Below, piece after piece: positions 2,100 through 60,604 of a stretch of DNA of 64,000 nt; positions within the stretch are counted from its first letter, which is position 1, and each line of letters begins with the position of its first letter. Position numbers and translations under genes: made by a program. The DNA is from a virus, in the IMG/VR virus record IMGVR_UViG_3300047562_003246, positions 1-64,000 of that record; one strand, given 5' to 3'. The notes below the pieces were generated by a model. It saw only the letters and a program-made list of their open reading frames with translations. It was not told where the DNA came from and ran no database searches.

Positions 2100-2132
2100 A
2101 AGCGCAGGGTTTGTAGGATCCTGCGCTTTTTT
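2100..2132 (+). terminator. intrinsic terminator whose 3' arm is the 14-bp motif
   Basis: AAGCGCAGG (2100-2108) pairs with CCTGCGCTT (2120-2128), then T run. Confidence 0.75.
2113..2126 (-). repeat. dispersed 14-bp motif GCGCAGGATCCTAC, copy 1 (intergenic)
   Basis: GTAGGATCCTGCGC on + strand. Confidence 0.95.
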
Positions 2133-2164
2133 GTTTACATGTGTTTTCTCTAGAGGAATATTTC

Positions 2165-2410
2165 ATGACTGTAAAATTTCGCTTCAACGTCACTGGTGTC
2201 TGTGAGCAAGAAATTGAGTTAGTAAAAGATTGTCCGCTGACTGTTGAGCAAATTACTGCTGGCTTAAACGGCGATGGAGACACAGTCGTTACGACCGTAC
2301 AAGAGGGCGGCGACTTGGTGATGTATCAGCCCGATGGAAAAGAAGTGATACTCGGAAAAGTAATCGATAGTACTATGGACGCCGAATACACGGAGTTCGA
2401 ACTGCAATGA
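2165..2410 (+). CDS. hypothetical protein
   Basis: ORF track 2141..2410; ATG 2165 after GAGGA. Confidence 0.7.
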   Translation: MTVKFRFNVTGVCEQEIELVKDCPLTVEQITAGLNGDGDTVVTTVQEGGDLVMYQPDGKEVILGKVIDSTMDAEYTEFELQ

Positions 2411-2652
2411 GCGCACGAAAGCAATTAGTGAAACAAGCCATTGAAACACTGACCAATTGTTGTCACAGCAATCAGTTAACAAGCAATGAAGTTCCAGAAG
2501 TAGAGTTGCTACTAGAAGAACTTGAAAGACTTCGAGATCAAGTAAGTCTTTTAGAGACCAAGAACTTTTTAAGAAAACCAGTCGTCAACGCAAAGACACT
2601 TAAGCCTGGTTTTTATGAACTAGGCGACGGCATTAAACTGGTGATCAAGTAA
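2407..2652 (+). CDS. hypothetical protein
   Basis: ATGA overlap with upstream gene. Confidence 0.7.
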   Translation: MSARKQLVKQAIETLTNCCHSNQLTSNEVPEVELLLEELERLRDQVSLLETKNFLRKPVVNAKTLKPGFYELGDGIKLVIK

Positions 2653-2978
2653 TGGCGAAGAAAGGTCAACTAACTACAAAGCAAATGGTTGCCGAGATAA
2701 GTCGTTATCTCGATACTTGTTCTAAAGAACAGTTAATTCGTTTTGTAGTTGACATGATGGAAAACACGGATGTAGAAAAAAGCATCAGGATCGTGTGTAA
2801 GATCATCATAGAGAATTCCGGTATTAAGCTAGCTGAGGTAGTCAAAAATGAAAAGCAAAAAACAAGCCGAGCAAAGAAAGCTGCACCTGCAAAACATCAG
2901 AAAGCACCTAACAAAAATGCAGGAATTAGCAAACGGGTACGAAAACCTGTATCGCATGGCGGAAAGAAGCGAAAATGA
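2652..2978 (+). CDS. hypothetical protein with Lys-rich C-terminus
   Basis: TAATG coupling to upstream gene. Confidence 0.65.
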   Translation: MAKKGQLTTKQMVAEISRYLDTCSKEQLIRFVVDMMENTDVEKSIRIVCKIIIENSGIKLAEVVKNEKQKTSRAKKAAPAKHQKAPNKNAGISKRVRKPVSHGGKKRK

Positions 2979-3219
2979 CTTGTTTGCTCCGCTACTGGAT
3001 ACAGCAGGGTCAATCGTCATAGACGGGTTATCTCGTAGCGGCACGTTACTTGAAGTTCTGACAGAGGGACTCAAAGCAGATTGTGATCATGCGTGGGAAG
3101 TCGTAGATGATTCTTATGATCATGAGTTCGGCACAGAAAATATTGTTTTTGAGCGTTGCATCCACTGCGACGAAGAGCGTGAGCATGAACCTCGTCAGTT
3201 TGACGATAACGTAATCTGA
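2848..3219 (+). CDS. hypothetical protein with C-terminal CxHxW...CxxC Zn-ribbon-like motif
   Basis: CDHAW...RCIHC; overlaps previous ORF by 131 nt, start uncertain. Confidence 0.55.
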   Translation: MKSKKQAEQRKLHLQNIRKHLTKMQELANGYENLYRMAERSENDLFAPLLDTAGSIVIDGLSRSGTLLEVLTEGLKADCDHAWEVVDDSYDHEFGTENIVFERCIHCDEEREHEPRQFDDNVI

Positions 3220-3243
3220 TTAGTAACCCGCGAGCAAGTAATT

Positions 3244-3786
3244 ATGATCGAGTATAGATGTTATCATTGCAACCAAGTTTTCTATGAAGAAGACGGATCA
3301 GCTTCTGAACATTTTGGTTGCAGTATGGTACAGGAACCTATTTGTACTATTAACGCGAAAAGACTTCGAGAGCTAGAACAAGAAGTTGATAGTCTACGAC
3401 GACAAATTCAGGAAGAGAGTACGCCGCTTGAAAGAGAAATAGCGTCTTTGCGATCAGAGATAGCTACTAAAGAACGTCGAGCTGAAGAAGCGGGATATGC
3501 TCGTGGACTTGAGGATGCAAAAAAGTATCCAGAAACACTGGGACTAATACAGCTTGCTAAATCAAATGTGGCTATGCGAGTCATTGGTAATGACGGCAAG
3601 CTTCTTGGGTATACACGCGGAGGTGAACTACTCTTTGACAGGGATCAATTTAAAGATTGGCCCAGTTTCGTTCAAAGTGTAAGTGACGCTATTTTTGATC
3701 TTGTGCCTATCGATAAAGAATCCGAGCCAGCGAAAGAACTTATTGCTAAAGACAATAAGCGAATAGCAGAGTTAAATAAGAGTTAG
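3244..3786 (+). CDS. hypothetical Zn-finger/coiled-coil protein
   Basis: N-terminal CxxC...HxxC, then heptad-like segment. Confidence 0.65.
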   Translation: MIEYRCYHCNQVFYEEDGSASEHFGCSMVQEPICTINAKRLRELEQEVDSLRRQIQEESTPLEREIASLRSEIATKERRAEEAGYARGLEDAKKYPETLGLIQLAKSNVAMRVIGNDGKLLGYTRGGELLFDRDQFKDWPSFVQSVSDAIFDLVPIDKESEPAKELIAKDNKRIAELNKS

Positions 3787-3821
3787 TTTTTGTTTCAGTC
3801 TCACACAGGATCAACAGTATT

Positions 3822-4103
3822 ATGTCTCAAAAAATAAAGAAAACACTAAGCATTAAAGAACACAGCGGATCAAAGTATCTACGAGAAATAATCACATCAG
3901 CAGATGGTCTGGTTGACGTTTACGCAGTTCTTGATGCATTCGAAGTGAAATGTCCTGGCAGTCAGCACGCCATTAAGAAACTTCTTTGCGCCGGTATTCG
4001 AGGCAAAGGCAGCGAGCTACAGGATCTTCGCGAAGCTAGAGATGCAATTGACAGAGCTATTGAGTTACGCGAGTTTAAGGAACAAAAAGTTCGTGACAAA
4101 TAG
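3822..4103 (+). CDS. DUF3310-like phage protein
   Basis: DVYAVLDAF...QHAIKKLLCAGIRG...DLREA pattern. Confidence 0.55.
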   Translation: MSQKIKKTLSIKEHSGSKYLREIITSADGLVDVYAVLDAFEVKCPGSQHAIKKLLCAGIRGKGSELQDLREARDAIDRAIELREFKEQKVRDK

Positions 4104-4347
4104 AAAACAAGAAATCGACCAAAACGAGCTGCATAACTATTTTGCAGGTGTACTTACTACAGTTCCACTGGACTGTAATTCGGGACTACCAAAACATATA
4201 AAACTAGTCGAACTTAAAGCAATGTTCGATCAGCTAGCTGCTTCTGCTCAAGCTAACTGTCGATCTTCGCAGTTAGCTTTAGAGCTTATCATTCGTCATG
4301 CAAAAATTACAGACAGCATTCAGCGACAATACGAAAATTTCATGTAG
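4093..4347 (+). CDS. hypothetical protein
   Basis: ORF track 4042..4347; GTG 4093 overlapping upstream stop region is the likelier start. Confidence 0.6.
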   Translation: MTNRKQEIDQNELHNYFAGVLTTVPLDCNSGLPKHIKLVELKAMFDQLAASAQANCRSSQLALELIIRHAKITDSIQRQYENFM

Positions 4348-4395
4348 TGTTGTTTGCTGGGTAGCTACGCATATACCAATTTGGATACGTAAGTT

Positions 4396-4785
4396 ATGAG
4401 TTCAGAAAATCCAAACAAAACAATCACAGCTCTATCGCAAAGTCATACAGAGTTATCTCGATCGACACACTCTTTGATTCAGAGTGTTCAAGAAGTTATT
4501 CAAGCTAACGAAGAGCTTATACAAGTAAATGAAAAGTTGCAAGCTGATAAGCAGTATCTAGTCGAGGCTATTGCTGAGTTTTTGAAGGCAACTAGCTGGG
4601 TTAATCACAGGGATTGCGATTCGGTTCGCATTGTTCCAAAAAATTCAGAATCCAGAGAGGTACACTGCGGAACTATTAATTTCAAAGTTCTCGAATCAAA
4701 GGTAGCCAAAGTTTTTCCTGATTGGGAAGAACTAAACAAAGACGACTGGGCCAAGGTTAATAATCGATCTCATGAGTGCACCTAA
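4396..4785 (+). CDS. hypothetical coiled-coil protein
   Basis: 129-aa ORF in gene chain. Confidence 0.65.
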   Translation: MSSENPNKTITALSQSHTELSRSTHSLIQSVQEVIQANEELIQVNEKLQADKQYLVEAIAEFLKATSWVNHRDCDSVRIVPKNSESREVHCGTINFKVLESKVAKVFPDWEELNKDDWAKVNNRSHECT

Positions 4786-4966
4786 AAAATCTAGTAACCG
4801 TACGAAGTTACACGATGATTCTTTGATGCCGTTTGGTGTTCACAAGAACAAACGTTTAGGCGACGTACCTGACAGTTATTTCAAGTGGTTTTTGCAGCAA
4901 AGCTGGGCAAAAGATTGGCCTGACTTGTATGCCTACGCAAAATTAGTCGAGGACTCTGAAAGTTAA
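4772..4966 (+). CDS. DUF3820-like small protein
   Basis: MPFGVHKNKRLGDVPDSYFKW matches MPFGKxKG...VPxxYLxW pattern. Confidence 0.65.
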   Translation: MSAPKKSSNRTKLHDDSLMPFGVHKNKRLGDVPDSYFKWFLQQSWAKDWPDLYAYAKLVEDSES

Positions 4967-5197
4967 ATGTCCATAACTCGTGATGAGCATCTTAAATGGT
5001 GCAAAGAACGTGCACTTGAGTTTGTAGCTAATAACGATTGCGATCAAGCGTTAGCATCGTTTATCTCCGATCTGAATAAGCACGACGAAACAAGAAATCT
5101 CTTAGAAATAGTCAAGCAGTTGACTCTTCCGCTTAAACGTATGGGTTTGCTTCAAACGCAGCAACAGCTGCGAGAGCACATTGAAGGCTTTATCTAG
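4967..5197 (+). CDS. hypothetical phage protein
   Basis: starts immediately after upstream TAA. Confidence 0.7.
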   Translation: MSITRDEHLKWCKERALEFVANNDCDQALASFISDLNKHDETRNLLEIVKQLTLPLKRMGLLQTQQQLREHIEGFI

Positions 5198-5218
5198 TTA
5201 TTTACTTAAGGAAAAACA

Positions 5219-5704
5219 ATGGTAACAACCCCTAGTAATCCAGAGGTGAAGATATCACTATACCAATGGCTTTTAACTAATATGCCTGACGAAAGGTATA
5301 GATATGCTGGATCAGCAGTGAGGCAAATCAACTGGGTACAAGGTGAACTGGCACAGATGGTTTGGCATAGTTTGCTTCCAAGCGGTAAGGGAGAATTAAG
5401 CTACGAACAAAGACGCGATACGTTGACAGTAGATGGTACGCACTTTTCTAAATCTGTGCTTCTGCCAGTTTATCGCTTTGATGTGGCTGGCGTGACAACT
5501 AAGATTCGTGGTAATTTTCATGATTGGTGCGTGAGATGCTGGACGCCTTTGAAGAAACCTTTTCCAGAATACATGAATCTTGGTTTTGATCGAGGGTATT
5601 TCGAAGGCATGTCTCACGAAGAATCGCCAGTTGCTTTTTGTGCGAATAACAAAGAACAACTTTACGCAGCGCTTTGGTGGATGTACAACGAAGGTATTAA
5701 GTAA
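5219..5704 (+). CDS. hypothetical phage protein
   Basis: AAGGA RBS; 161 aa. Confidence 0.75.
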   Translation: MVTTPSNPEVKISLYQWLLTNMPDERYRYAGSAVRQINWVQGELAQMVWHSLLPSGKGELSYEQRRDTLTVDGTHFSKSVLLPVYRFDVAGVTTKIRGNFHDWCVRCWTPLKKPFPEYMNLGFDRGYFEGMSHEESPVAFCANNKEQLYAALWWMYNEGIK

Positions 5705-5727
5705 TTTGTGCTTGGTTTGTAAGTTGC

Positions 5728-5847
5728 GGATCGGTGGCTGAAATAATAAAGCAGGCGAGCCTCTACGCTTTCGAGCGCGGCAGCTGTCTTGACGCTGGTG
5801 ATGTTAATCACTCGACCCAAGTGCAGGTGTAAATCTTGCCCGATCCA
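5728..5847 (+). ncRNA. tRNA-like RNA with expanded, branched insert replacing the anticodon arm
   Basis: Acceptor GGATCGG/CCGATCC+A, D stem GCT/AGC, T arm GCAGG-TGTAAAT-CTTGC; ~70-nt insert with UUCG hairpin. Confidence 0.6.
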
Positions 5848-5993
5848 TTTTGAAGTGAACAGCGGGTGAAAACGTTGTGACTACCAGTGGTGAACCCAAT
5901 AGTTGGGGAACTTCTCGTATTAAGCCGATTATCTCGGCCCAATCGTGATGGGAAACACAAAGCATAATCAACGTGACAGCCGGAGAGACGGCA

Positions 5994-6007
5994 TTTAACG
6001 GTCACTT
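5994..6007 (+). repeat. gene-boundary direct repeat TTTAACGGTCACTT, copy 1
   Basis: identical to 6312-6325. Confidence 0.8.
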
Positions 6008-6025
6008 AACACTTGAGGTTTGGAA

Positions 6026-6316
6026 ATGGATATTCATGAGCGTTGGGAAGCTGTCACGAAAGGTGGTGACGAGTTTTTGAAGTTCAACAAGGTCGCAAAC
6101 AAGCGAAGCCAGCGACCAGACTTGCACGCATTTTTGCTGCTGGATGAGTTGTTCCCAGGCACTGGCGATATGGTGGCGGCTGCGAGCCACGACGAGATTT
6201 GGTTGGACGTGGAAGACAATCAGGTCGAGACTTTGACCGATGAACAGATTTTAGAGTTGTCTTGGTGCGGCGTGCGTCACGATAGGGACGTAGGCGGTCT
6301 CTGCATGTTCGTTTAA
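6026..6316 (+). CDS. hypothetical phage protein
   Basis: GAGG RBS; stop TAA lies inside the boundary repeat. Confidence 0.75.
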   Translation: MDIHERWEAVTKGGDEFLKFNKVANKRSQRPDLHAFLLLDELFPGTGDMVAAASHDEIWLDVEDNQVETLTDEQILELSWCGVRHDRDVGGLCMFV

Positions 6317-6325
6317 CGGTCACTT
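6312..6325 (+). repeat. gene-boundary direct repeat TTTAACGGTCACTT, copy 2
   Basis: identical to 5994-6007. Confidence 0.8.
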
Positions 6326-6342
6326 GGTATTTGAGAGGAAAT

Positions 6343-6504
6343 ATGAATACTGGATTTTGTGCGGCTATGTGGCGAAGGTGGCGGGGCGAACCCGAAACTG
6401 AGCCACTAAATAGATTCGATGATCCGGTCGTCCGGTTTTATTTGTCACGACCTATGGCTAGCGATAGGGAGTCGCAGCGGCATCACATGTGGATGATGGA
6501 GTGA
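6343..6504 (+). CDS. small hypothetical protein (53 aa, not in ORF track)
   Basis: GAGAGG RBS, MNTGFCAAMWRR...; TGA followed by CGGTCAC. Confidence 0.5.
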   Translation: MNTGFCAAMWRRWRGEPETEPLNRFDDPVVRFYLSRPMASDRESQRHHMWMME

Positions 6505-6531
6505 CGGTCACTGAGATATAGGGGACTAGAA

Positions 6532-6774
6532 GTGATGGCACCAGAAGTAAACGTCGAGAGCTTCCGAAACGATCCAGACAACGGGCCGTTTTATGGCGAG
6601 TGGTGTATCCTTTGGTCAGCTGAAGGTTCGTCTCGACTCAGGCTTGCCAGCGGATTTTTAGACGAAACAGAAGCGACGGAGGAAGCCGAGAGAAGGCAGA
6701 AAGACCATCAAGTTATATGGCGAATTTGCGAGTGTGCGGAACTAATCGAGGACGACGAAGATGATAATAATTGA
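6532..6774 (+). CDS. hypothetical acidic protein
   Basis: AGGGG RBS; 80 aa. Confidence 0.65.
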   Translation: MMAPEVNVESFRNDPDNGPFYGEWCILWSAEGSSRLRLASGFLDETEATEEAERRQKDHQVIWRICECAELIEDDEDDNN

Positions 6775-6883
6775 CAACGAAATTGGCTGGATCATGGCGT
6801 GCTGCATTACCAATTTCACAGCGTTTGCTTGTGGTTTTGGTTGCGGGCTGGCGGTGAAACATTTCCAAGGCCCGAAACAGTGA
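6761..6883 (+). CDS. small hydrophobic protein (40 aa, not in ORF track)
   Basis: GAGGA upstream; MIIIDNEIGWIMACCITNF...; TGA followed by CGGTCA. Confidence 0.45.
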   Translation: MIIIDNEIGWIMACCITNFTAFACGFGCGLAVKHFQGPKQ

Positions 6884-6909
6884 CGGTCAAATTTACAAAG
6901 AGAGTAGTG

Positions 6910-7215: not shown

Positions 7216-7242
7216 GTCGTAACACTATTGAAAGGAGTGCAA

Positions 7243-7437: not shown

Positions 7438-7449
7438 GTCGAACACTAA

Positions 7450-8478: not shown

Positions 8479-8483
8479 CAAAA

Positions 8484-8497
8484 GCGCAGGATCCTAC
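8484..8497 (+). repeat. dispersed 14-bp motif, copy 2 (intergenic, 5 bp after stop)
   Basis: exact GCGCAGGATCCTAC. Confidence 0.95.
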
Positions 8498-9219: not shown

Positions 9220-9246
9220 ATCTGATTAACTGGTATTTTTTGTCTA

Positions 9247-11230: not shown

Positions 11231-11437
11231 ATGAAAGACAGCGAAATCAGAGCTAGGCTCATCGAGCAAGGCGTCAAGAACTTGAAGGAATTTGGTTACC
11301 CAAACTGTACTTCAAGCAATATCTTGACTGACGGTATTTACAAAGAGTTCTTTTTGTCGATGCTCAAGGACAACAAGGGACACAACTCGCAGATTGACAA
11401 AGTGATCGATCAGCTTATCGCTGATATCGAGAAATAG
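11231..11437 (+). CDS. hypothetical phage protein
   Basis: 68 aa; last base of TAG is first base of the 14-bp motif. Confidence 0.7.
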   Translation: MKDSEIRARLIEQGVKNLKEFGYPNCTSSNILTDGIYKEFFLSMLKDNKGHNSQIDKVIDQLIADIEK

Positions 11438-11450
11438 CGCAGGATCCTAC
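11437..11450 (+). repeat. dispersed 14-bp motif, copy 3 (overlaps stop codon)
   Basis: exact match. Confidence 0.95.
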
Positions 11451-14375: not shown

Positions 14376-17087
14376 ATGATGTCTATCGATTACCAATCTA
14401 TCGCACACCGTTTGTCGAAGCAAGCTGGTTCTCTGCTTAGAACCATTCTTGTTAGCGGACATAGTGGTTCAGGTAAGTCAACGCTAGCCGAGCGACTGGC
14501 GACTAGGCTACAGCAGCCGCTTGTTTCGCTTGATAAACACCCTGCTTGGCACGATCTGTTCCGTTCAGACCCAGAAAGCTTGCACCTTATCAAAGGAACT
14601 CCTGAGCGTAAAAACTTCTTAGCTATTCGAAAAATGATAGCTAATGACGCACTAAGTGGACTTAAAGAACCTACGATTGTTGAAGGCACTCAGTTAGTTG
14701 GTTTGCCTTTCAAAGACCTTGCTCGTTTTGCAAGGGTTTATGTTTCTACGCCTTTACGTCAGTTACTTGATCAAAGGATAGCTAGGGTTGAGGCAAAAGC
14801 TTTAGCAAAACAAAAACCATGGGACGAAAGTATCCGTCAGCGTCGTTACGACATGGGAAGACGTATATACAACGACAATTACAGGAGCATGCTTAAGTTC
14901 AAAAACATGCCCGGTACTTTACATTATCGTACTCGCGAAGACTCGCCGGAGGATGTTATTAACTTGCTGCAAAAACAAAGCAGTGAGTATGTGTTTAGTC
15001 GAGTAGATGACCCAGGTGATGGAACTAAGCAGGACTTACGCAAGCGGTTTGACGTTCATCTAGATAACAAGAACGTAGCGTACCTTGTTTATCGCCCAGA
15101 GTCATTCGAGAAAGACGGACCATTCTTATCCGGGCTGTACGTGTCACCAGAACATAGACGGCAAGGATTAGCTAAAAAACTTGTGACTATGCTTGAACGA
15201 GAGCATAAAGGCGAGACTATTAGGTTACTTGCTAATCCGTACAAAGACAAAAATCTGTCGACTCAGGATTTAGTTGCGATGTACAAACATCTTGGTTTTG
15301 ATTCAGACAACAAACGTCAGCCTGCTCGAATGAGTAAAAAAGCTGATGTTGATTTACTGACTGCATTAAAATCAAGAGGTATTGACCTTACTGACCCTGC
15401 GCAGGATCCTACAAAAAAAGGAATCTTTGGACAGCTCAGGCGATCGTTTGCTGAGCGATTCAAGCCTATCTCTAATCCGGCCAACATTTCGACAGTATTA
15501 CCAGAACTTGGAAAACCAGCGAGACATTTTATGAGCAATCCACGTTACAGCACTGACTTGGGCCTACATAACAAGCCGAGCTTGTTTACACAGTTTAAGC
15601 AAGCGAACGATCCGTTTGTTCTTGCCAACAGGAGAGAAATACTACCAACACTGGCAGGCCCCAGATACTCTTTTCCTGTAACTAACGATCCAGCTGAGCA
15701 AGAGTTTATGGGTATAGATACTAACCAACCCGTAGACCGCTATGACTATAGGCAATGGGGTAAAACTAACATACCTACAAGACCTGAGCCGTTTGATTCA
15801 TTTATTGACCCTCTAGGAACCGGCCTGCAACGATCTAAGCGAAATGGACGATATGTCGGTAGGCTCCACGATAATGCAAGATTGTTTTGGGAGAAAGATC
15901 TTAATGAGCTGGCAGCTAATATCAACAATTCTCCAGCATCTGTAAACAGCAATTTAGCCGGAATGCCTGTTTATTCTCCACTATCACCAGCTGACTTATC
16001 TCGTAACAATCAAGCAGCCCAACAAGAATTCGGTTCTGGAGTTAATTACCAGAATCAAACAGGAGTTGACAATTTTGATATTACTGACGCAGATGTGTGG
16101 GCTACCAAGCAGCGTCGTTTTTTCGATCCTGATAACCTATTACGTAGTAATCCTGCTCAAGAAGATCGAAATTATTTTTTTGGTCGCGCATTTTCCCAGG
16201 AAGATATAGACAAGGAAACAAGAAGTCGAATTGTTCACAGCATGCCTAGTGTGTATTCACCGCAAAGACCTACGCAAGCTGCTCCCAGTCGTTCCTTGAC
16301 AGAAAACACCCCAGCAACTACGACACCTGTTAGATCAACGACAACCGCAACCCGGCCAACTGTAACTCGATCGACTGCGTCAACGCAATCGTCATCGCCG
16401 CAAGTAAATACAACTACTACTTCTAGTTCTTTGCCGAAATTTACTCCACCATCCAGAACAAATACACCGGTATCGGCTTCAAGTTCACGTAATTTAGCTG
16501 GACCTGCTGTAGCTACAGCGAACTCAGTATCACCAAAAACAACCAGACAAAACGCCATTATTAATACCGTCAGAAATCCTACGACTTACAACGGCATCAG
16601 AGTTAATAATCAAGCCGCTGCGAGAAACAAATCACTCGGACAAACTGATCGGCAAGAACTAGCCAACGCCGGTTTTGGTGTAACTCCAGGCGGAGTAATT
16701 CAACGTACAAATACAAGACGTAGCGTCGGAGGTGGAACGTTCGGCGTAGGTGCAACACCATCACCAGGACAGTCTGGCGAACAAGCATTAAGAACAACAA
16801 CCGGCATACCAACAAGCTCTGTGATTAATCCGCAGAATGTTGTTGCTGGTCGGTCAAGATATGGTCTTGCCGCAGATGGTACATCAAGAATGCCAGCAGG
16901 TCGTCGTGGAATGATCATGGCTAGGACTGATATAAGCGACGAGCAAAAGCAAATGTATTTAAACAAACTAGACGCTTACGAGGCTAGCAAAGGTAGAAAC
17001 AGGTTTATACAAAAACAGTCAGCCGTAATAACACAATATACTTCTGATTTGCTGTATGCTTGGAAAAAGTTAATTGCGCGTAGATAA
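14376..17087 (+). CDS. multidomain protein: P-loop kinase + GNAT acetyltransferase + unknown domain + Ser/Thr-rich region
   Basis: GHSGSGKST Walker A; LSGLYVSPEHRRQGLAKKL (GNAT motif A) and MYKHLGF; KQA/KQS/KKA at domain junctions. Confidence 0.75.
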   Translation: MMSIDYQSIAHRLSKQAGSLLRTILVSGHSGSGKSTLAERLATRLQQPLVSLDKHPAWHDLFRSDPESLHLIKGTPERKNFLAIRKMIANDALSGLKEPTIVEGTQLVGLPFKDLARFARVYVSTPLRQLLDQRIARVEAKALAKQKPWDESIRQRRYDMGRRIYNDNYRSMLKFKNMPGTLHYRTREDSPEDVINLLQKQSSEYVFSRVDDPGDGTKQDLRKRFDVHLDNKNVAYLVYRPESFEKDGPFLSGLYVSPEHRRQGLAKKLVTMLEREHKGETIRLLANPYKDKNLSTQDLVAMYKHLGFDSDNKRQPARMSKKADVDLLTALKSRGIDLTDPAQDPTKKGIFGQLRRSFAERFKPISNPANISTVLPELGKPARHFMSNPRYSTDLGLHNKPSLFTQFKQANDPFVLANRREILPTLAGPRYSFPVTNDPAEQEFMGIDTNQPVDRYDYRQWGKTNIPTRPEPFDSFIDPLGTGLQRSKRNGRYVGRLHDNARLFWEKDLNELAANINNSPASVNSNLAGMPVYSPLSPADLSRNNQAAQQEFGSGVNYQNQTGVDNFDITDADVWATKQRRFFDPDNLLRSNPAQEDRNYFFGRAFSQEDIDKETRSRIVHSMPSVYSPQRPTQAAPSRSLTENTPATTTPVRSTTTATRPTVTRSTASTQSSSPQVNTTTTSSSLPKFTPPSRTNTPVSASSSRNLAGPAVATANSVSPKTTRQNAIINTVRNPTTYNGIRVNNQAAARNKSLGQTDRQELANAGFGVTPGGVIQRTNTRRSVGGGTFGVGATPSPGQSGEQALRTTTGIPTSSVINPQNVVAGRSRYGLAADGTSRMPAGRRGMIMARTDISDEQKQMYLNKLDAYEASKGRNRFIQKQSAVITQYTSDLLYAWKKLIARR
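15399..15412 (+). repeat. dispersed 14-bp motif, copy 4 (coding, reads AQDPT)
   Basis: exact match. Confidence 0.95.
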
Positions 17088-17101: not shown

Positions 17102-18109
17102 ATGTTTGATCATCGACGGTTTTCATTATGGCTGCAAAAACAAGCTATCGGCGCTAGATCTTTACGCGCCGCTAAAAGTTTGGCAAGACTTAATGAGAAC
17201 GTGTCGGGTAACACTGCAGCCGTTAAAGAGTTAGCCAGACGTATAGGCAAAGCTAAGTCAGACACTGGTTATCTTCGACAGATATCTCAAAGACGTTTAC
17301 CACATATTGACGCTATTTTGCCTGAAAGTGGAAAATCCACTTACCTGTCTACTCCATCAAGTACGGCTAGATCCCGATCTTTGACACTGAAATACAGGTA
17401 TCAACAGTACTTGGGTAGTTTAGCTAAAAGAAACCCAGGAATATTTTCGCAGCAAGATTGGGATAAATTCAATATAGAAGATAACTTGCCCAGGGTACAA
17501 ACCCCTGAATTTACACAAAGGATAGCTCGTTATGCAGATAGAAAAGAGAAGCGTATATGGGATCGAGTGAAACAGGATCCTGCGCTTATGGAACTTTATA
17601 GACGAAAAAAGTTAGTTGATACCGCTAAAAAAGACATGTACGTTGGGGCTTACGTAGATAGGTCAAGAAGTAATATCAAACCAGTAGATCTTCCTACTGG
17701 GGATAATATGAGATATAAGGGTTTGTTAGAGTTTCCAGCAACACCGCAAAATGAACCGATCTGGTATTCACCTCGACCTGACGTAGCTGAAGGATATAGT
17801 CGTGGCACAGGTGTTGTTGCTGCGACAGATGAAAACACATTGAGAAAATTTGGACCACTTGGCCCTGTAACATCGCATATTAGTACCGATAATAGACTTT
17901 TGCCCGTTAAAAAGACAGGATTTATGGCTAGATTTTTATCAAGGTTCAAAAAACCAAAACCAACTTCACCTGGATTTGAGCAGGTAGCTACTATGCCTCC
18001 GTTGCAACAATGGGCGGATAATCATACGTTCTTTGCAAAAATGCCAGATAATAAATTTAGACAAATGTCGGGTCGCGGTCTGCTTGGGAAAGAAGTAAGC
18101 GATGGTTAG
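17102..18109 (+). CDS. KQA-leader protein with possible ADP-ribosyltransferase-like domain
   Basis: LWLQKQAIGA leader; RYKG...WYSPRPDVAEGY...FEQV resembles R-S-E ART motifs. Confidence 0.4.
   Translation: MFDHRRFSLWLQKQAIGARSLRAAKSLARLNENVSGNTAAVKELARRIGKAKSDTGYLRQISQRRLPHIDAILPESGKSTYLSTPSSTARSRSLTLKYRYQQYLGSLAKRNPGIFSQQDWDKFNIEDNLPRVQTPEFTQRIARYADRKEKRIWDRVKQDPALMELYRRKKLVDTAKKDMYVGAYVDRSRSNIKPVDLPTGDNMRYKGLLEFPATPQNEPIWYSPRPDVAEGYSRGTGVVAATDENTLRKFGPLGPVTSHISTDNRLLPVKKTGFMARFLSRFKKPKPTSPGFEQVATMPPLQQWADNHTFFAKMPDNKFRQMSGRGLLGKEVSDG
17572..17585 (-). repeat. variant of 14-bp motif (12/14)
   Basis: ACAGGATCCTGCGC on + strand, coding (KQDPAL). Confidence 0.6.
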
Positions 18110-21685: not shown

Positions 21686-21758
21686 CCCATATTGACACAG
21701 ATTTATTGTTTGCCTAGTTTATTGGTCAGTCCTACGAGTGATCGTAGCGATTTCCTGG

Positions 21759-21796: not shown

Positions 21797-21810
21797 GTAG
21801 GATCCTGCGC
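21797..21810 (-). repeat. dispersed 14-bp motif, copy 5 (between terminator and RBS)
   Basis: GTAGGATCCTGCGC followed by TTAAGAGGAG. Confidence 0.95.
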
Positions 21811-21824
21811 TTAAGAGGAGCATT

Positions 21825-25172: not shown

Positions 25173-25681
25173 TCTGTTTTGTAGGATCCTACGATCGAGC
25201 GCTTATGTTGAAGATAGCATGCGAGGTTATTGGTGATGATCCCGAATTTGTAGGGAAAAAATTCACTGCGGTATTACGAATGGTTCCTAAGAAGCCTGGA
25301 CAAGCTGAGCTGTACGAAAGGCTTGAAGAGTCAGCGACTTTATCTGGCGAGCCTATTTTCGTGCGAAGTGATAAAGTCAAGTACGATTTTAATAAGGTAG
25401 AGCTGCCAGTAGCTTCTGAAAATTTGCAAGGTTTTTACAACGAGTACGACGTTAAGCGAAAAGACGGTAAGCATGAGATGGACGCTACCTATGTCGTTCT
25501 TCGTATTGATAGTAACATGGAAAACAAGCAAAGATTAATCGCTAATCGATTTGCAATCAGTGAAGCGGCTAGATACATGTTTACTGTCTGTGCCGTATGT
25601 CCTGATGATATTACTTACGCGTCAGATATGTTCAACTTGGTTCAGCTACTACATTGGGTCGATATAGCTGGTGACACTTAA
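25145..25681 (+). CDS. hypothetical protein
   Basis: 178-aa ORF; start uncertain (GTG inside hairpin). Confidence 0.6.
   Translation: MGDNTLPTSVCFVGSYDRALMLKIACEVIGDDPEFVGKKFTAVLRMVPKKPGQAELYERLEESATLSGEPIFVRSDKVKYDFNKVELPVASENLQGFYNEYDVKRKDGKHEMDATYVVLRIDSNMENKQRLIANRFAISEAARYMFTVCAVCPDDITYASDMFNLVQLLHWVDIAGDT
25181..25192. repeat. perfect-palindrome variant of motif, GTAGGATCCTAC
   Basis: 12-bp palindrome built from the CCTAC half-site. Confidence 0.75.
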
Positions 25682-28084: not shown

Positions 28085-28098
28085 GCGCAGGATCCTAC
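28085..28098 (+). repeat. dispersed 14-bp motif, copy 6 (intergenic)
   Basis: exact match 15 bp after stop. Confidence 0.95.
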
Positions 28099-30909: not shown

Positions 30910-31665
30910 ATGAATCAACCTATCGAACCTACCGCAAAACAAACACTCAATGTTGAGCAAAAGCATTTTGAGCTATTTGAGCGATCTATTGCGAAAGTAA
31001 TTCAGGGAGCTGAGTCTTTCGACAAGTACGTCAGCTCGAAAAAAGGCGGCTCCAGCTTTCCAATGGGCGACGACGACGATGAAGAAGGCTACGAGCAAGG
31101 TTACGAAAGCTGGGAGGCAGTCAAGCAAGATGGGAACTTCAACAAGCTTGCGTTCTGCTTACATAACAGCATGCGATTGTTTATCGCGACCAGAGAACTT
31201 GTGCGGCAGGAAGGGTTAGCTGACTTTTCTATCAATCAGCCACAGGTACAAGAAGGGCCTCGCATGATGCCTATGCTTGTTGGGTCGATGCGAGTACCTG
31301 GACAACCTGCAGAAGGACCCGAGCAAGCCGCTGAGCAGTGTAACTGCCCGGTATGCGTAGTTAATCGCCATCGCGCAGCACAACACGGAATGACTCCGTT
31401 TGAAGCGATACCCGAAGCATCTGCGTTTATGGACGATAAAGACCAACCGCCTCAAGTGCACGCAGCTACAAATATGCTGTTTTCTACGGCGAGTTACGCT
31501 TTATCTTTGGTTTCGCAGGAACAACTCGACAAGATTTGGGGTAGGGTTAAAGAGCTGATTTTTGAGCATTCACAGTTGCAGCGAGCACAACTGGAGCCAG
31601 TCGAGCAAACTGCGCAGGATCCTACGCAGATAAAAGCTACGAAGATTTTCACAAAGCTTGCTTAA
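30910..31665 (+). CDS. hypothetical protein
   Basis: 251 aa. Confidence 0.7.
   Translation: MNQPIEPTAKQTLNVEQKHFELFERSIAKVIQGAESFDKYVSSKKGGSSFPMGDDDDEEGYEQGYESWEAVKQDGNFNKLAFCLHNSMRLFIATRELVRQEGLADFSINQPQVQEGPRMMPMLVGSMRVPGQPAEGPEQAAEQCNCPVCVVNRHRAAQHGMTPFEAIPEASAFMDDKDQPPQVHAATNMLFSTASYALSLVSQEQLDKIWGRVKELIFEHSQLQRAQLEPVEQTAQDPTQIKATKIFTKLA
31612..31625 (+). repeat. dispersed 14-bp motif, copy 7 (coding, reads AQDPT)
   Basis: exact match. Confidence 0.95.
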
Positions 31666-38784: not shown

Positions 38785-39162
38785 ATGGGTTTCACGACAT
38801 GTAACGGTTATTCTCGCAGAGACTTAATCATACACTTGATGTCTGATAGTCCGCAGGATAAGTACATCGCTATCAACAAGTACACAAGTGGTAACGACTT
38901 ATGGGTCGTCATGCAAAGGCGTGATGCGCAGGATCCTACAAACGCCGATAGATACATCAGGCTGTATAGATTACAGCGAACTAAGGATGGCTGGGGCTAC
39001 AGCGACTATGCAGAAGCAGATTGTCCTTACGTATTTAGCTGTCCGTTGATTTTTCTGGACATTACTTTTCACCAAAACACCGATTGGCGAAAAGGGGTAA
39101 GAGAGTATTGGAAAGCCCGTAAGGAAGCGATGACTACTCGTAGAAAAAGTTCGCCTAGTTGA
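38785..39162 (+). CDS. hypothetical phage/plasmid protein
   Basis: AAGGAG RBS; WGY...E...PY...CPL...L...WR pattern. Confidence 0.7.
   Translation: MGFTTCNGYSRRDLIIHLMSDSPQDKYIAINKYTSGNDLWVVMQRRDAQDPTNADRYIRLYRLQRTKDGWGYSDYAEADCPYVFSCPLIFLDITFHQNTDWRKGVREYWKARKEAMTTRRKSSPS
38926..38939 (+). repeat. dispersed 14-bp motif, copy 8 (coding, reads AQDPT)
   Basis: exact match. Confidence 0.95.
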
Positions 39163-40044: not shown

Positions 40045-40500
40045 ATGTCGGCAGTATTTTTGTTAGCGTTCCCTGAGCAGGATAACGTCGGAGTCTTCTC
40101 CGATGCGTTTCCTGTCTCTGCGCCGCCTCCTGTGTTATTGGCTGCTGCGCTGAATATTCTGCGAGATAGGCTTGTACTGAGTTTCAGCGAAGTAGTTACA
40201 GGAAACACAGTTCCAGTGCTGACATTCTCAGGCGGCGCAGTTACGGCGACATTTGCAAACATTGTCGGAGATACGGTCAGGTTTACCTTAAGTCGCACGA
40301 TTGCCGAAAACGAAACAGGTAGTTTGACGCTCAGCGCAGGATCCTACACTTCGGCTTCTTCAGGGGAGACTAACTCGGCAGCTGCGCTTAGCATCGCAGT
40401 ACCTACGGCGAGAATGAATGCAGACAGGGGTCTGGTGAATTCTCTGTTTCGTAGCCGCATTGTTGAGAGTATTACGGGCGATATTGTAGAGCTAAACTGA
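40045..40500 (+). CDS. probable virion protein with Ig-like (SwmB-like) domain
   Basis: LVLSFSEVV...VRFTLSRTI...GSLTL. Confidence 0.5.
   Translation: MSAVFLLAFPEQDNVGVFSDAFPVSAPPPVLLAAALNILRDRLVLSFSEVVTGNTVPVLTFSGGAVTATFANIVGDTVRFTLSRTIAENETGSLTLSAGSYTSASSGETNSAAALSIAVPTARMNADRGLVNSLFRSRIVESITGDIVELN
40334..40347 (+). repeat. dispersed 14-bp motif, copy 9 (coding, reads SAGSY)
   Basis: exact match in a different frame. Confidence 0.95.
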
Positions 40501-52064: not shown

Positions 52065-53261
52065 ATGGAACAAGGATTCACATCACTGTCTGCGGGTATC
52101 GCCGAAATCGATCAGGCGGTTACCGATAAAACAACAGCCGATTTGGTGACAAATACAGGTCTCGGTGCTGTTCTGCGTAGGATCCTGCGCACGGTTTACG
52201 AGATAAATCCCGATGTTTCTGGTACCTGTCAGAACTGTTTTTTCTACGGGCAAGGAGCACCTGCTGCTGAGTTAGGCAAAGAAGATGACTGGTATTTGCA
52301 GATCGACACCGGAGACATATGGGCGCATTCCGGTGCAAGTGCACAAAATACGCCTGCTCCCATACCAGTTGATATTGAAGTCATTACCGAAGAAGACTTG
52401 GAAAACTTTTTTGGTAGCTGGGCGAAAACTGGTATCACGCTTAAGGGTCCAACGGGTCCAACTGGATTAACCGGACCCGCAGGAACCAACGGTACTAACG
52501 GAGCTTCAGTCGATGTTCGTATGTCTGGAACAGAACTACAAACAAAATTGACTAATCAGCTGGATACAAGTTACGTAACTAGATTTGATTTTGCAGATAT
52601 TACGCCAGTTGTAACGGTTAGCCCTGATTTAGATCTAAATTACCGTTTAGCTGGCGATGCTCCAGAAGAAGCTGCAACGATATTTGATCTAGCGTCCTTG
52701 ACGCCAAGAATGCGTGTCGATTCTAACAAGCTCCAGTGGAAGCTCACAGTTCAGCCTGACACCGATTATGTAGACGTTCTAAATCTCAATACGATTACGC
52801 CAGTATTTCGTATTGTCAATCGTGATGTGCAGTACAAATATGCTAGCCAAGCCGACAGTAGCTACACGTCTATCGGGGAATTAGATAGCGCTTCACAGTT
52901 AGACGGTGATATTATCCCGGTCAGCGTTGCGCTCAGTAATATTACTCCGGACACAACCCCTGAACAAGTAACAGCAGCAGACCAGCTCGGTGCGATCATA
53001 AAAGGCATCGATAATGCACTGACGCAGGCCCCTTTAAAAATGCGGGCTGTGCAAGTTGACGCGGCTATGGTTACCGCTAGATCGGTGAATTTTTCTGTCG
53101 AGCTTCGTGACCCGGCGAATGCTGTGGTAGTATTAGATGGATCCTTCCGACCAGCTGGACAGGTCTCAGTCAACGCTAACGGCGTAATGACTTGGGCAGC
53201 TGGAGGTGCCTTTGCCAGTGCTATAACTAGCTCAAGCTATGTAATACTGTTCTCTAACTGA
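52065..53261 (+). CDS. collagen-repeat tail fibre/virion protein
   Basis: GQGAPAAELGKEDDWYLQIDTGDIW; GPTGPTGLTGPAGTNGTNG; three short internal repeats. Confidence 0.7.
   Translation: MEQGFTSLSAGIAEIDQAVTDKTTADLVTNTGLGAVLRRILRTVYEINPDVSGTCQNCFFYGQGAPAAELGKEDDWYLQIDTGDIWAHSGASAQNTPAPIPVDIEVITEEDLENFFGSWAKTGITLKGPTGPTGLTGPAGTNGTNGASVDVRMSGTELQTKLTNQLDTSYVTRFDFADITPVVTVSPDLDLNYRLAGDAPEEAATIFDLASLTPRMRVDSNKLQWKLTVQPDTDYVDVLNLNTITPVFRIVNRDVQYKYASQADSSYTSIGELDSASQLDGDIIPVSVALSNITPDTTPEQVTAADQLGAIIKGIDNALTQAPLKMRAVQVDAAMVTARSVNFSVELRDPANAVVVLDGSFRPAGQVSVNANGVMTWAAGGAFASAITSSSYVILFSN
52177..52190 (-). repeat. dispersed 14-bp motif, copy 10 (coding, reads RRILR)
   Basis: GTAGGATCCTGCGC on + strand. 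Confidence 0.95.
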
Positions 53262-59200: not shown

Positions 59201-60008
59201 GTATCTAGATATCGCTACTACTCATAAGTTGCACGAAGCTTTAGGGTTATCTACTGCATCTTTAGGAGCAAATACAGACGGTGATCGTATTGTTAATTTG
59301 CACGACAGTAAATTCTTCAGTAATACGGATTCAGGTCACATAGGGACATTTAGATATACGACAAACACCCCTTCAGGTTCGCCGTTGTCGCACAGAAATG
59401 TACGATTTCAAAAAGCTGATTTGATCGAATTAAACGGACCTGTTTATTGGCGTATCGAGTTGCAGATACCGCCGCCCGCAGGTACAACACACTGGTTAAA
59501 GTCTGCTAAAGAAATCATAATTCAAAATTCGCCTAGCTTTATTCTCGACGAGCTATCGTTCGATCCTAGGTCTATAGGTACAAGGATTTACAGAATTACT
59601 AACACGCAAAACGTGTCTCTTCGTATCGATTGGCGCAAAAATTTAGCTCAAGCAAATACTTTGTTTTTCCCGAACGCTAACTGGCCTTCCAATACAGAAC
59701 TGGGCGTCCGACTAGTCCATATCATTAATCATCAGATGTCTTATCAAGAAGAACTAGCGTTTTTCACTAGGCTAGAGGGGATGTTGAACACACTAGTTAA
59801 CACATCCGGAGCTTATTCTCGTAGTGCAGGTTTTATACTCCCAGCGGCAACGATTTGCGAGATTTACCTGAAACGAGTTGGTGGGATTAACCCGCAAACT
59901 CCGGACGATATAATGCACAACAACGCGATTTTGCAGTCTATTACGAATATTGCTATATATTCGCAGCAAGCAAACGCACCGAATGTTTTCAGAATTACTA
60001 GAGAGTAA
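53280..60008 (+). CDS. giant (2242 aa) Ig-like repeat adhesin/virion protein with PKD-like domain
   Basis: ten or more units of type TITFNEDVTGL..ADF.V.NG...Y...V.P.G; VDWGDG...SHVY. Confidence 0.8.
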   Translation: MQMRPEQKLHLAQETPNLNQRLSRLGAQYSGTCVIFDSTFGQELDLSLSFVGEDPNYLWVRAVFSKPPANLSTASFTITGPITAHSLSGQDRSFVFVLQKTGFGQASISIATNTVADEAGEFFPATGPIIRDINARPIPVITGPTQVSVGTTQLTITFNEDVTGLSIADFVVTGGSVNSLVGSGDSYTFNLEVASIQTEVQVVLPAGVCQAANLSTNVDSNIYAPVTSKGPLTATVKPTKAIFSTFLTTFLIEWNADVDDSFSQQDLSVNTGTITGFTKITPSKFLVNVTVTEDTTVTLTVVAETVTLLGYDPNLAASGSCQVSTTALTFTLVPPTGWLNGEAVIEVIANGPHSGLLASDFVVQNGVVLDWSPVGNGGSLTVAPTSYGREVVLAVSIPAGVAVNPAGLENNAAGPVQVFHDSLPPAITFVSFTRIGDEYEFAFRTSEIVVRVLDYSHPESSSTVFTGEGLNWVVRVNPIADKGNLQINFPAGLFADKAYNVSAAVSSPVYPFDTVGPVGDWQLVADGHAITRVTNKKNRAFILTFDSQLSAELTIDKLTTSTGLVVSGLEVIQPRRVYRVSTVNSGLTGIAQLSLPVGSVRDMFDNINTTASTVNWDFDFVKPVVSDWSATVDERNVLFVIEFNENVSRNVGNFQVLTQNLTVLDVTFSSRIITVSTTVNSSTPSNNLQVGIALPQNFVLDIADNGNDQTIYFTTIVDTAGPTVTITSPQHPQTSSQLVTFGIESSDPLSSDLVRSQLQLVNATLDPLSDLDTSFVINTPGRVYTATVRAVQDGEVRLTVPANILLDLDGNPNSQGSLTVLVGSRFNLTLAFSAGSKPDTRVLTVSSSIAIDQSSLTVSDINPSEGALSVEAGDSFNRFVIQLNPALTTARATIPSGEVLSTTGRVNNQATQQTSYAAMLASAIMTSTTQQVRRNVDIPVDITWNIRVQRFTVADLKIGIRNVDLQIITGTGFVGNIVGLTTIEPGYKFRAICRVSEFPSNLQERLHIWHDATVNGTADMANRRVTDQAFISLPFVDPLVSTFSSPDSPSTTKRLITFVVTFNSDLAQNLTQQDFTIINGAIGAAYPGSSFTVSPNGRQYTLVVYALAVDDVTVILANDVAQGAQGQFVQGGELTVVWLGLENFFIEWVTAAGEYRDSFDFHLVVEEGIDLDYDQVTVDSLVFNSNLMKITKLPGQNAAFTAIRIPSLTVAVFEAPAGVYESADGRRNNKATGVRSLLAFLGGLTITTETSFVVYDRDLVFTITSNTKINGTIDPNDLEFGLRDSLYNPVPGFNQDGELVEFVEVVPGYRWTGRYRLDGQITTTAYPFYIWYTNNGNDTVNYFNQPIPSGARARLQVLGVFAAEIWNSTPAAWYPYPAILTFDIRFNQDLAVELTTADFDIVNGNVHTSSPSNGFVTVTSKRHYKVYVRPITTGNVTVSIAAGEVASVTGARNTAAEATASWTWYFQLTGQITPTAKADQFMVTLNVPEGTILPDAMAQQNALSTNSWVAEKIYVPNTFQWILRVHPATGPTFNTSEPRQIQISINRNVFVTDNGSRNEPYVFPAYSFTVVPNINLTVETDPLSTGENFVVRVKSNTYFVFDPDSNPSQNILGLGIICYCGFVDVSGFDPANYLASIPGLTLSGDRGYLQSTEVDENYEYTWAFQLTAISPPKRIQYSNLITYGHRDQVNVQVQVGFDDNNQPIYRFSQEAYLAIVNSVIGDFGARPLTGGLLLSNGAIYLVQGDKLHKPVVLDITKHLVEFDWLGDVYATFRHAFHNTLLNVFPRYKTRSIIVRVRVREMPAGTAQVITVDWGDGEIENITASQAVNTGVTVPNELEFWLSHVYPDASLYTASIEAVSSYTTITTLCEARVRANGTLTRVRPTEISLNQIVAIRENPNRDKLKGLEEVCVSQNLTGMLSVVSTAEDKVVKSLKAYTGYLKLPEDYGIFNFDTNPNNPFQERLTVGGVTFAPVEYLDIATTHKLHEALGLSTASLGANTDGDRIVNLHDSKFFSNTDSGHIGTFRYTTNTPSGSPLSHRNVRFQKADLIELNGPVYWRIELQIPPPAGTTHWLKSAKEIIIQNSPSFILDELSFDPRSIGTRIYRITNTQNVSLRIDWRKNLAQANTLFFPNANWPSNTELGVRLVHIINHQMSYQEELAFFTRLEGMLNTLVNTSGAYSRSAGFILPAATICEIYLKRVGGINPQTPDDIMHNNAILQSITNIAIYSQQANAPNVFRITRE

Positions 60009-60010
60009 CA

Positions 60011-60604
60011 ATGAGCGAACTAGATAAAACGATTGGAACACTTGACGGTTTGAACAGTATTTTGCTTGGTCAAATCGAGAACGGACAGCTGCCCAAGTTT
60101 GCGCAGGATCCTACAACTGCCGGTGCCTACGGTGAACCGATACCGGCGGAAATGGTTCAGCAAGGTGCAACGCAAATGGCACCAGAACCTGGAGCAGCAA
60201 GCGGTATGCCGCCAGAGCAACAAGATCCAATGATGCAGATTGCCGACATGGTCGCTCAGATCGGCCAGCTACTAGAGCAAGGCATGATGCAGATTCTCGA
60301 AGTCTTGACTCGTATGGACGAAACCAATCAGCGGGTCGAGAAACAGTTAGTGCTGATGTCCGGCGCAACACTAGGACAGCAAGCCACGATGGCGGCAAAT
60401 CCGATTGTTCCTCCACCGCCACAAGCAGCAGGACCTGGACCAGCTCAGCCGCAAAAGATGGCAAGCGATGAGATCGAACTTCCTGCTGCACAGCGAGACG
60501 GGCAAATGGCCAAACTCGACAGCGTTGACAGTCTGGGAGAGACGCTTAGAAAAACAAGTAATGTTTTCGAAGCGATCCGAGCGATCAGGGCAAGTGGTGA
60601 GTAA
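60011..60604 (+). CDS. Gln/Pro/Met-rich protein (scaffold-like)
   Basis: low-complexity Q/P/M composition; QKMAS motif. Confidence 0.55.
   Translation: MSELDKTIGTLDGLNSILLGQIENGQLPKFAQDPTTAGAYGEPIPAEMVQQGATQMAPEPGAASGMPPEQQDPMMQIADMVAQIGQLLEQGMMQILEVLTRMDETNQRVEKQLVLMSGATLGQQATMAANPIVPPPPQAAGPGPAQPQKMASDEIELPAAQRDGQMAKLDSVDSLGETLRKTSNVFEAIRAIRASGE
60101..60114 (+). repeat. dispersed 14-bp motif, copy 11 (coding, reads AQDPT)
   Basis: exact match. Confidence 0.95.

Follow-up and report, generated by a model that had tools for sequence, protein, structure and literature searches.

Short sequences that recur without variation along an entire phage chromosome have, to our knowledge, been published once, for the Cluster O mycobacteriophages in 2015, and without a function. 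In Corndog and its relatives the repeat is a 17-bp dyad, TGTTCGG-NNN-CCGAACA (Cresawn et al. 2015, PMC4351075), of which each genome holds more than 30 invariant copies, within as well as between genes (PMC4351075). The copies are unoriented with respect to transcription, show no association with promoters and occur in phages that are not obviously temperate; their function is unknown (PMC4351075), and Cresawn et al. argued that the repeat must bind a dimeric protein in some process other than transcription initiation (PMC4351075). Equally of unknown function are the nick sites of T5 and BF23 (R/GCGCRGG), of the phiKMV-like phages and of the LUZ24-like phage tf (TACT/RTGMC; PMC3517423). Here we describe an array of a 14-mer, GCGCAGGATCCTAC, dispersed along the genome of an uncultured phage, IMGVR_UViG_3300047562_003246 (the study phage), represented by an IMG/VR contig of 185,237 bp with a CheckV completeness of 88%. 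The window covers positions 1 to 64,000, the first 64 kb of this contig, and coordinates refer to it unless the contig is named.

Cluster O provides the closest published precedent. Its repeat resembles that of the study phage in having many invariant copies, inside and between genes and unoriented, and its 7-3-7 geometry is shared by a dyad in R312, one of three close relatives treated below. The site of the study phage, by contrast, is asymmetric, with one half degenerated and a centre of 4 bp rather than 3 bp, and the array is about threefold sparser (one site per 6.2 kb, as opposed to about one per 2 kb in Cluster O). Even spacing and lineage-specific retuning are demonstrated here, and no protein with a ParB-like domain was found in the study phage. 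An initial annotation of the window had held that the motif matched none of a set of established comparators. The Cluster O repeat was not in that set, and the first seven bases of the motif are those of the T5 nick consensus; that claim can no longer be upheld.

The kind of feature is thus not new, the Cluster O repeat being a published precedent. What is new is an exact 14-mer that is asymmetric; statistical proof, in two independent lineages within a single phage family, that the spacing is even; a retuning series with a perfect 7-3-7 dyad at one end and, at the other, an asymmetric 14-mer whose spacer has changed, which provides raw material for finding the reader by co-variation; evidence that selection conserves density, not position; and an exact overlap between the motif and the T5 nick consensus, by which two phage features that both lack an explanation become connected.

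A 14-mer in 30 exact copies

A pattern search of the window returns 11 exact copies of GCGCAGGATCCTAC, with the coordinates and strands of the initial annotation all reproduced. They are given here together with two variants, each with two mismatches.

2113..2126, − strand: exact copy, intergenic, 15 nt upstream of the open reading frame (ORF) starting at 2141
8484..8497, + strand: exact copy, intergenic, 6 nt past the stop of ORF 7450-8478
11437..11450, + strand: exact copy, its first G being the final base of the TAG stop of ORF 11231-11437
15399..15412, + strand: exact copy in the gene of an AAA+GNAT protein (14376-17087), reading AQDPT
17572..17585, − strand: two-mismatch variant GCGCAGGATCCTGT, coding; a decayed or nascent site
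21797..21810, − strand: exact copy, intergenic, directly past the T-run of an intrinsic-terminator-like hairpin, 15 nt before ORF 21825
25181..25194, − strand: two-mismatch variant TCGTAGGATCCTAC, coding
28085..28098, + strand: exact copy, intergenic, 16 nt past ORF 27698-28069
31612..31625, + strand: exact copy in ORF 30910-31665, reading AQDPT
38926..38939, + strand: exact copy in ORF 38785-39162, reading AQDPT
40334..40347, + strand: exact copy in ORF 40045-40500, in another frame, reading SAGSY
52177..52190, − strand: exact copy, antisense in ORF 52065-53261, reading RRILR
60101..60114, + strand: exact copy in ORF 60011-60604, reading AQDPT

The division of these copies into five intergenic and six coding, as originally reported, agrees with four that are fully intergenic, one that overlaps a stop codon and six within ORFs. 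Allowing up to two mismatches gives 15 matches in the window, compared with 0.19 expected from dinucleotide-preserving shuffles.

The contig as a whole contains the exact word 30 times (20+/10−); read backwards, as a control, the same word does not occur in it. Near-misses are few, with two one-mismatch and four independent two-mismatch sequences in the contig as against the 30 exact copies. Like Cluster O genomes, then, the study phage carries tens of invariant copies genome-wide (30 in 185 kb). Alignment of the 30 copies shows 14 invariant positions with sharp edges. Immediately outside them, 29 of 30 copies are followed by a purine (R) and 23 of 30 are preceded by A or T (W); for the 11 window copies alone the figures are 11/11 and 10/11, as first noted. 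The flanks are otherwise unrelated, with a weakly A-rich 3' side. The core had been described as a quasi-palindrome, and indeed it can be written as GCAGGATCCTAC with a single mismatched pair. A literature search with the exact sequence returned cloning primers only. We conclude that the feature is real and strongly selected.

Even spacing and selection at the DNA level

The gaps between the 30 sites range from 684 to 11,858 bp, with a mean of 6.2 kb and a coefficient of variation (CV) of 0.487. This is significantly even: when 30 points were placed at random 100,000 times, such evenness was never reached. The largest site-free stretch measures 11.9 kb, compared with a random median of 22.9 kb (p ~1e-4), and since the longest gap is half of what chance would typically produce, selection apparently acts against long site-free stretches.

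To relate the sites to genes we used a simple ORF map of the contig, in which 213 ORFs (198 of them on the + strand) cover 91.7% of the sequence and 8.3% is non-coding. Copies are enriched in the non-coding fraction, where eight of the 30 are fully intergenic (2.5 expected, p 0.002). Four more overlap stop codons, and in three of these the motif itself supplies the TAG. The other 18 lie within ORFs: 11 read AQDPT, three read (S/R)AGSY, one reads LRRILQ and three, in antisense, read RRILR. The intergenic copies, whose orientation is unconstrained, divide equally between the strands (4+/4−). As with the Cluster O repeat, sites are found both between and inside genes, unoriented, and not at promoters.

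The copies inside genes allow selection on DNA to be separated from selection on protein. All 11 AQDPT pentapeptides of the proteome are encoded by one identical 15-mer, and the motif employs minor codons (GCG 0.18, CGC 0.11, AGG 0.13, TCC 0.07). Shuffling synonymous codons within each gene left a mean of 0.27 copies and a maximum of three in 300 shuffles, compared with the 18 observed in coding sequence; protein sequences cannot, therefore, account for the in-gene copies. The full-genome count, the codon-preserving shuffle and the spacing test, all three of which the initial annotation had proposed as checks, thus speak for the array. Selection acts on the DNA and not on the protein. That AQDPT is a peptide motif is ruled out by the shuffle and the identical codons, as well as by the intergenic copies and those in other frames. 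One exact word found genome-wide, even in essential genes and at a cost in codon choice, implies that the phage marks its whole chromosome for some protein.

How a site comes to lie within a gene is illustrated by a 631-residue portal-like protein, in which the site falls in a variable Gln/Pro/Gly linker. R312 has GGQDPAAM at this point, and the site adds no residues; the absence of an indel of its own implies that the word arose there through substitutions and not through insertion. The same observation, together with flanks that are unrelated right up to the motif boundary, disposes of a mobile mini-insert resembling a miniature inverted-repeat transposable element. A linker or assembly artefact, already judged unlikely when the motif was first noted, is ruled out, because ORFs stay open across the copies even though 14 bp is not a multiple of three, and because syntenic versions occur in three independent assemblies. 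Finally, the sense strand of the motif folds at 0.0 kcal/mol. This excludes mechanisms based on an RNA hairpin, a terminator or a single-stranded DNA hairpin for the study phage.

Terminator-like hairpins are nonetheless tied to three intergenic copies in minus orientation, at 2090-2140 and 21750-21815 in the window and at contig 73975-74045 (L303:9975-10045). The copy at 2113 pairs with an upstream GCGCAGG and so forms the 3' arm of a terminator-like hairpin that is followed by T6 (−18.5 kcal/mol, z −4.7). The copy at contig 74024, like that at 21797, begins directly past the T-run of a strong hairpin.

Site versions in relatives and a second array

Three close relatives, L310, L311 and R312, derive from independent assemblies and samples; their RNA polymerases are 75, 74 and 66% identical to that of the study phage. 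They carry retuned versions of the site, namely GCGCAGGATCCYTC, GCGCAGGATCCTRC and, as a perfect palindrome of 7-3-7 geometry, GCGCAGA-NNN-TCTGCGC, with roughly one copy every 5-7 kb. L310 has four sites in 18.9 kb (two of GCGCAGGATCCTTC and two of GCGCAGGATCCCTC) and L311 has three in 21.5 kb (two of GCGCAGGATCCTGC and one exact 14-mer). In R312 there are eight perfect dyads in 47 kb, six of which read GCGCAGAT(T/A)ATCTGCGC. Throughout the clade the half-site GCGCAG is constant; a spacer of 5 bp becomes one of 4 bp, and in the study phage the second half has decayed to CTAC.

Two sites are syntenic. The first is in the RNA polymerase gene, within a conserved PLRRILQ segment, where synonymous positions inside the motif are identical in three phages while those flanking it vary; position 12 of the motif is A, T or G, matching each phage's own version. 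The second lies 8-13 nt upstream of a 2H-SAK gene and is on the − strand in the study phage, on the + strand in L311, a dyad in R312 and degenerate in L310. The initial annotation had looked to close relatives for the motif at syntenic positions. This expectation holds for these two sites and, more broadly, for the presence of each relative's own version at similar density; it fails for the other sites of the clade, which are lineage-specific. It is density, and not position, that selection conserves.

A side observation concerns the hexamer GGATCC, which is absent from 27 kb of R312 (L312, Logan SRR33155362_2967), where some 6-7 occurrences are expected; the study phage has 63. This suggests BamHI-type restriction pressure on the host of R312, and such pressure may be the reason why the R312 version of the site is without GGATCC.

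The study phage belongs to a large family of uncultured jumbo phages of ~200 kb with a bacterial-type RNA polymerase, in which beta and the N-terminal half of beta' form one fused chain. Among cultured phages, Salmonella phage Arash and the Vibrio phages D69, D148 and D181 are distant relatives. Whole-genome word counts were made on nine other members of the family. In one of these, G004 (a 181-kb contig with an RNA polymerase identity of ~37%), there are 19 sites of an unrelated quasi-palindrome, AGTGGAGACGTCTCYA, with a gap CV of 0.50 (p 0.0014), and two relatives of G004 at ~72% nucleotide identity have kept the same word, with 2/3 sites syntenic. Word counts revealed no array in G002, G003, G005, G006, G007, G008, Arash or Vibrio phage D69. 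G002 was considered as an array bearer and rejected: it has a palindrome, AAGATATCTT, yet this is not genome-wide, and its 11 AGATATCT sites have a CV of 0.89. The trait is sporadic, and it arose, or was retuned beyond recognition, at least twice. A comparable, evenly spaced palindrome, AWAGATATCTWT, has been described for lake phages of ~200 kb.

Some of the array-less members show local palindromes or promoter-like words of the TATAAGTA type, of which the study phage has merely three. Words standing beside ribosome-binding sites include TAAGYRCTTA, found ~22 times in G005 (IMGVR_UViG_3300024348_000001), TGGTATAAGTAA, found 10-16 times in Arash, and TTATAAGTAA in D69. Such words in array-less members look like promoters of the phage polymerase.

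Possible readers of the sites

Our preferred reading, to which we assign a probability of roughly 0.45, is that the 14-mers are docking or recognition sites of a phage-encoded protein that reads duplex DNA in a sequence-specific manner and that was originally dimeric. We favor such a reader because the sites show no orientation preference, because a syntenic site is flipped between sister phages, and because the site changes with the lineage. Selection would keep one exact site in each stretch of ~12 kb of chromosome. The ancestral site would have been a two-fold symmetric inverted repeat of GCGCAG, of the kind that is still perfect in R312, and it is this symmetry that points to a dimer. In the study phage one half-site would have drifted (GCGCAG-GATC-CTAC), after which the entire 14-mer would have become fixed. 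New sites would be gained by point mutation in intergenic DNA, in linkers of proteins that tolerate the change and at stop codons while old ones were lost, and gain and loss in place would leave density conserved rather than position. The protein would probably be non-catalytic, docking along the whole chromosome for organisation, compaction, packaging or protection, and not a transcription-initiation factor. Were the reader found, it would provide a new orthogonal protein-DNA recognition pair, together with a way into the organisation, packaging or protection of large phage chromosomes.

Binding by a phage protein along the chromosome had also been the proposal of the initial annotation. Selection at the level of DNA, the lineage-specific sites, their even spread and the dyad of R312 all agree with it; no binder was identified, and the functions listed for it (genome organisation or segregation, packaging or ejection, protection) cannot be separated. 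Repression of elongation, which stood in the same list, is disfavored for reasons given below.

Several observations weigh against a docking protein. The array is absent from most family members examined, which implies that its function is dispensable for the family. Complete invariance at 14 positions in 30 copies is stricter than in most sets of transcription-factor or ParB sites, and such invariance is more typical of nucleases or nickases. The asymmetry of the study-phage site means that a simple homodimer needs an extra assumption. Finally, no binder was found: about 100 proteins of the study phage, roughly half of its proteome, were scanned with Pfam or PHROGs, and among these, with Pfam blind to most genes here, none has a DNA-binding domain that can be linked to the site. 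A six-frame search of the whole contig for ParB_N (PF02195) likewise gave no match at E <= 1, while control genomes matched. The co-occurring DNA-binding gene that the initial annotation had hoped for was thus not identified, neither as ParB_N nor as a helix-turn-helix candidate. ParB-parS, KorB-OB and Noc-NBS are in other respects similar systems, in which a dimeric protein acting at the scale of the chromosome recognises (quasi-)palindromes of 14-16 bp dispersed along a replicon. They differ in that parS-type sites cluster whereas the array spreads evenly over the genome, and the site is unrelated to parS.

A weak lead to the reader is a DUF932-like protein (contig 145828-146874; L307:1828-2874), with an Atlas score of 0.96 and TM scores of 0.72-0.79 to DUF932 clusters. 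Its gene starts 25 nt past a motif copy and, according to phmmer, is common only to the study phage and G004. Five fragmentary relatives yielded no match to it, and a structure model from the single sequence was unusable (pLDDT 36). Two other genes are common only to these two phages, one for a 147-residue protein and one for a subtilase; the latter we judged irrelevant as an array-linked gene. An Atlas search with a small, basic, clade-specific protein encoded beside a conserved site (contig 165632-166045) gave nothing.

The overlap with T5 raises an alternative, in which the phage encodes a site-specific nicking system that acts at the sites, of the kind found in T5, BF23, the phiKMV-like phages and the LUZ24-like phage tf. 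The nicks of T5 were discovered 60 years ago and are still unexplained. Nicking would predict ligatable single-strand interruptions in virion DNA, 5' of GCGC on the motif-bearing strand. We regard this as less likely than docking, yet as a serious rival. The commonest T5 site, GCGCAGG, is identical to motif bases 1-7; it starts at the 5' boundary, falls in the part conserved across the clade and agrees with the major-nick consensus of T5, 5'-R/GCGCRGG-3' (PMC3517423). Judged after the fact, the chance of such a placement of the T5 core is roughly 2e-3. In T5 itself the minus-strand consensus matches at 8.0, 18.3, 32.6, 64.5 and 99.6% of the genome; A/GCGCAGG is the reading at four of these five positions. 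We take the five positions to fit the major-nick map. Nick systems share with the array a short exact consensus along the genome, and the near-absolute exactness of the 14-mer, with its few variants, resembles that of tf, where 11 sites are exact, three variants are tolerated and three are inactive. Similar positions in relatives and co-evolving one-base shifts of the main site are likewise known, as between tf and LUZ24 or PaP3 (PMC3517423). Against this, nick sites in T5, the phiKMV-like phages and tf all lie on one strand (PMC3517423), whereas here both strands are used (20+/10−, and 4/4 where unconstrained); in R312, where the site is a perfect palindrome, nicking would sever both strands at points 17 bp apart. 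The base before the motif is mostly T and not R as in the T5 consensus. Nor do we know of even spacing among nick sites. In a comparison of T5 with the study-phage proteome the family A DNA polymerase was the sole T5 protein with a detectable relative, which may count for nicking; no homologue of a T5 late gene or of a nickase was found, and none of the proteins scanned has an HNH, GIY-YIG or HUH domain. An HUH/Rep-like ORF (contig 124189-125229) is an orphan with no relative in Pfam, PHROGs, PDB or sequence databases, and lends no support as a nickase; its stop codon falls in a motif copy, and the hairpin that precedes the ORF is a terminator of the ordinary kind. Elements of the repetitive extragenic palindromic (REP/RAYT) or IS200/IS605 type were rejected in view of this lack of relatives and of the 0.0 kcal/mol of the motif strand. 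More doubtful still is the specific version in which nicking related to that of T5, with a GCGCAGG core, uses both strands at sites evenly kept ~6 kb apart. If it were true, the even spacing would hint at what nicks are for, for example as loading points for replication, clamp or repair machinery of limited reach, and the co-evolution of the site versions would lead to the nickase.

Three further explanations borrow from other systems with dispersed words, and we consider each of them improbable. Stoperators, through which a repressor bound genome-wide blocks elongating RNA polymerase in Cluster A phages such as L5 and Bxb1, are like the array in comprising ~30 dispersed, asymmetric, near-invariant sites of 13-14 bp with a lineage-specific consensus. 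This consensus co-evolves with a phage protein. The location of 12 of the 30 copies at gene boundaries and the presence of nearly all genes (198 of 213) on one strand would also suit such a role. Stoperators, however, follow the direction of transcription and are mostly intergenic, whereas 18 of the 30 copies are within genes, unconstrained copies divide 4+/4−, the 2H-SAK site is flipped between sister phages and the R312 version is a perfect palindrome. The phages that carry them are, moreover, temperate and encode an immunity repressor; none of the ~100 proteins scanned here showed a repressor or integrase domain, and the virion of Arash contains the phage RNA polymerase (PMC10585845), which suggests a lytic lifestyle. 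It is above all the lack of orientation bias at unconstrained sites that makes repression of this type very improbable.

Less probable again is that the array arose as a side effect of DNA methylation and repair, or works together with them, in the manner of the highly iterated palindrome HIP1, with a methyltransferase-linked bias or signal on GGATCC or GATC. A D12-class N6-adenine methyltransferase (contig 179880-180899; L308:15880-16899), whose last codons contain a motif copy, is encoded by the study phage and all three close relatives but by none of nine other family genomes. The centre of the motif contains GATC, and this tetramer is over-represented in the study phage (943 compared with ~708 expected from base composition) and 1.3- to 2-fold in the clade. 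Yet six of the eight R312 sites have ATTAT or ATAAT centres, and because the sites of R312 are mostly without GATC, methylation cannot be the common denominator. Beyond the motif, GGATCC is at its expected frequency (63 in total, ~35 expected, 34 in motif-like contexts), the array of G004 exists without a D12 methyltransferase, and mutational bias yields neither even spacing nor exactness over 14 bp. Least probable of those named is a host factor that reads the motif as a Chi-like signal for recombination or against degradation, or as an uptake-sequence-like or nucleoid-protein site, the phage mimicking the chromosome of its host. A density of ~1 per 6 kb resembles that of Chi in Escherichia coli, and, like Chi, the uptake sequences DUS and USS and the cyanobacterial HIP1, the word is over-represented in and out of genes under selection at the DNA level. 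Those are words of host chromosomes, 5-12 bp long and spread over broad taxa, whereas the array word has 14 bp, far more than any Chi known to us, and is specific to a phage lineage. We looked for exact matches in IMG/VR, in 185,579 prokaryote species represented by a single genome each, and in the JGI and ENA metagenomes. IMG/VR and, among the matches listed, the species genomes and metagenomes held isolated single chance matches only; the word was not iterated in any bacterial genome among those listed, and a host-derived repeat finds no support there. One locus with two matches, L106 in a bacterial metagenome-assembled genome (CAYJLF010000018.1, bases 1-8000), was set aside as a duplicated contig end: the matches lie 7.1 kb apart with at least 40 identical flanking bases, there is no similarity to the study phage, and the locus is a repeat or circular-overlap artefact. 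Sites of a host factor could not tolerate the differing versions of the relatives, which include a changed half-site spacing, and the lack of an orientation skew is a further point against one. The remaining probability we leave to something not considered.

The few proteins that Pfam and PHROGs recognised in the study phage include a family A DNA polymerase with a UDG-like domain, a primase, a DnaB-like helicase, SbcCD-like proteins and a gpA-type terminase; further matches are to RIIA-like, SIR2, GNAT, subtilase and D12 methyltransferase proteins. ARAGORN found no tRNA or tmRNA gene in window 1-64000. Other loci are as follows.

11538-12257 and 14376-17087, + strand: SIR2/NTPase-GNAT region
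61025-62950 (+ strand) and contig 170093-174508 (L308:6093-10508): RNA polymerase loci

In the first of these regions a SIR2-family protein (E 3.5e-10) adjoins an unknown protein of 700 residues and a P-loop NTPase/GNAT protein of 903 residues, a group that may make up an early-region module for counter-defence or with an NAD-related role. Tandem coding repeats occur at contig 64540-64660 and 128757-128940; their units, one of 21 bp giving a GGSQSTG-like peptide and one of the 15-bp class giving an acidic DDDDS run, account for the other high-count 14-mers. The RNA polymerase is split in an unusual way. A chain of 1471 residues combines beta with the N-terminal half of beta' (Rpb2_6, Rpb1_1, Rpb1_2), and a separate chain of 641 residues with Rpb1 domain 5 is encoded 110 kb away. 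The same split is common to hundreds of uncultured relatives, in some of which the large chain carries inteins or an inserted 2H-SAK domain.

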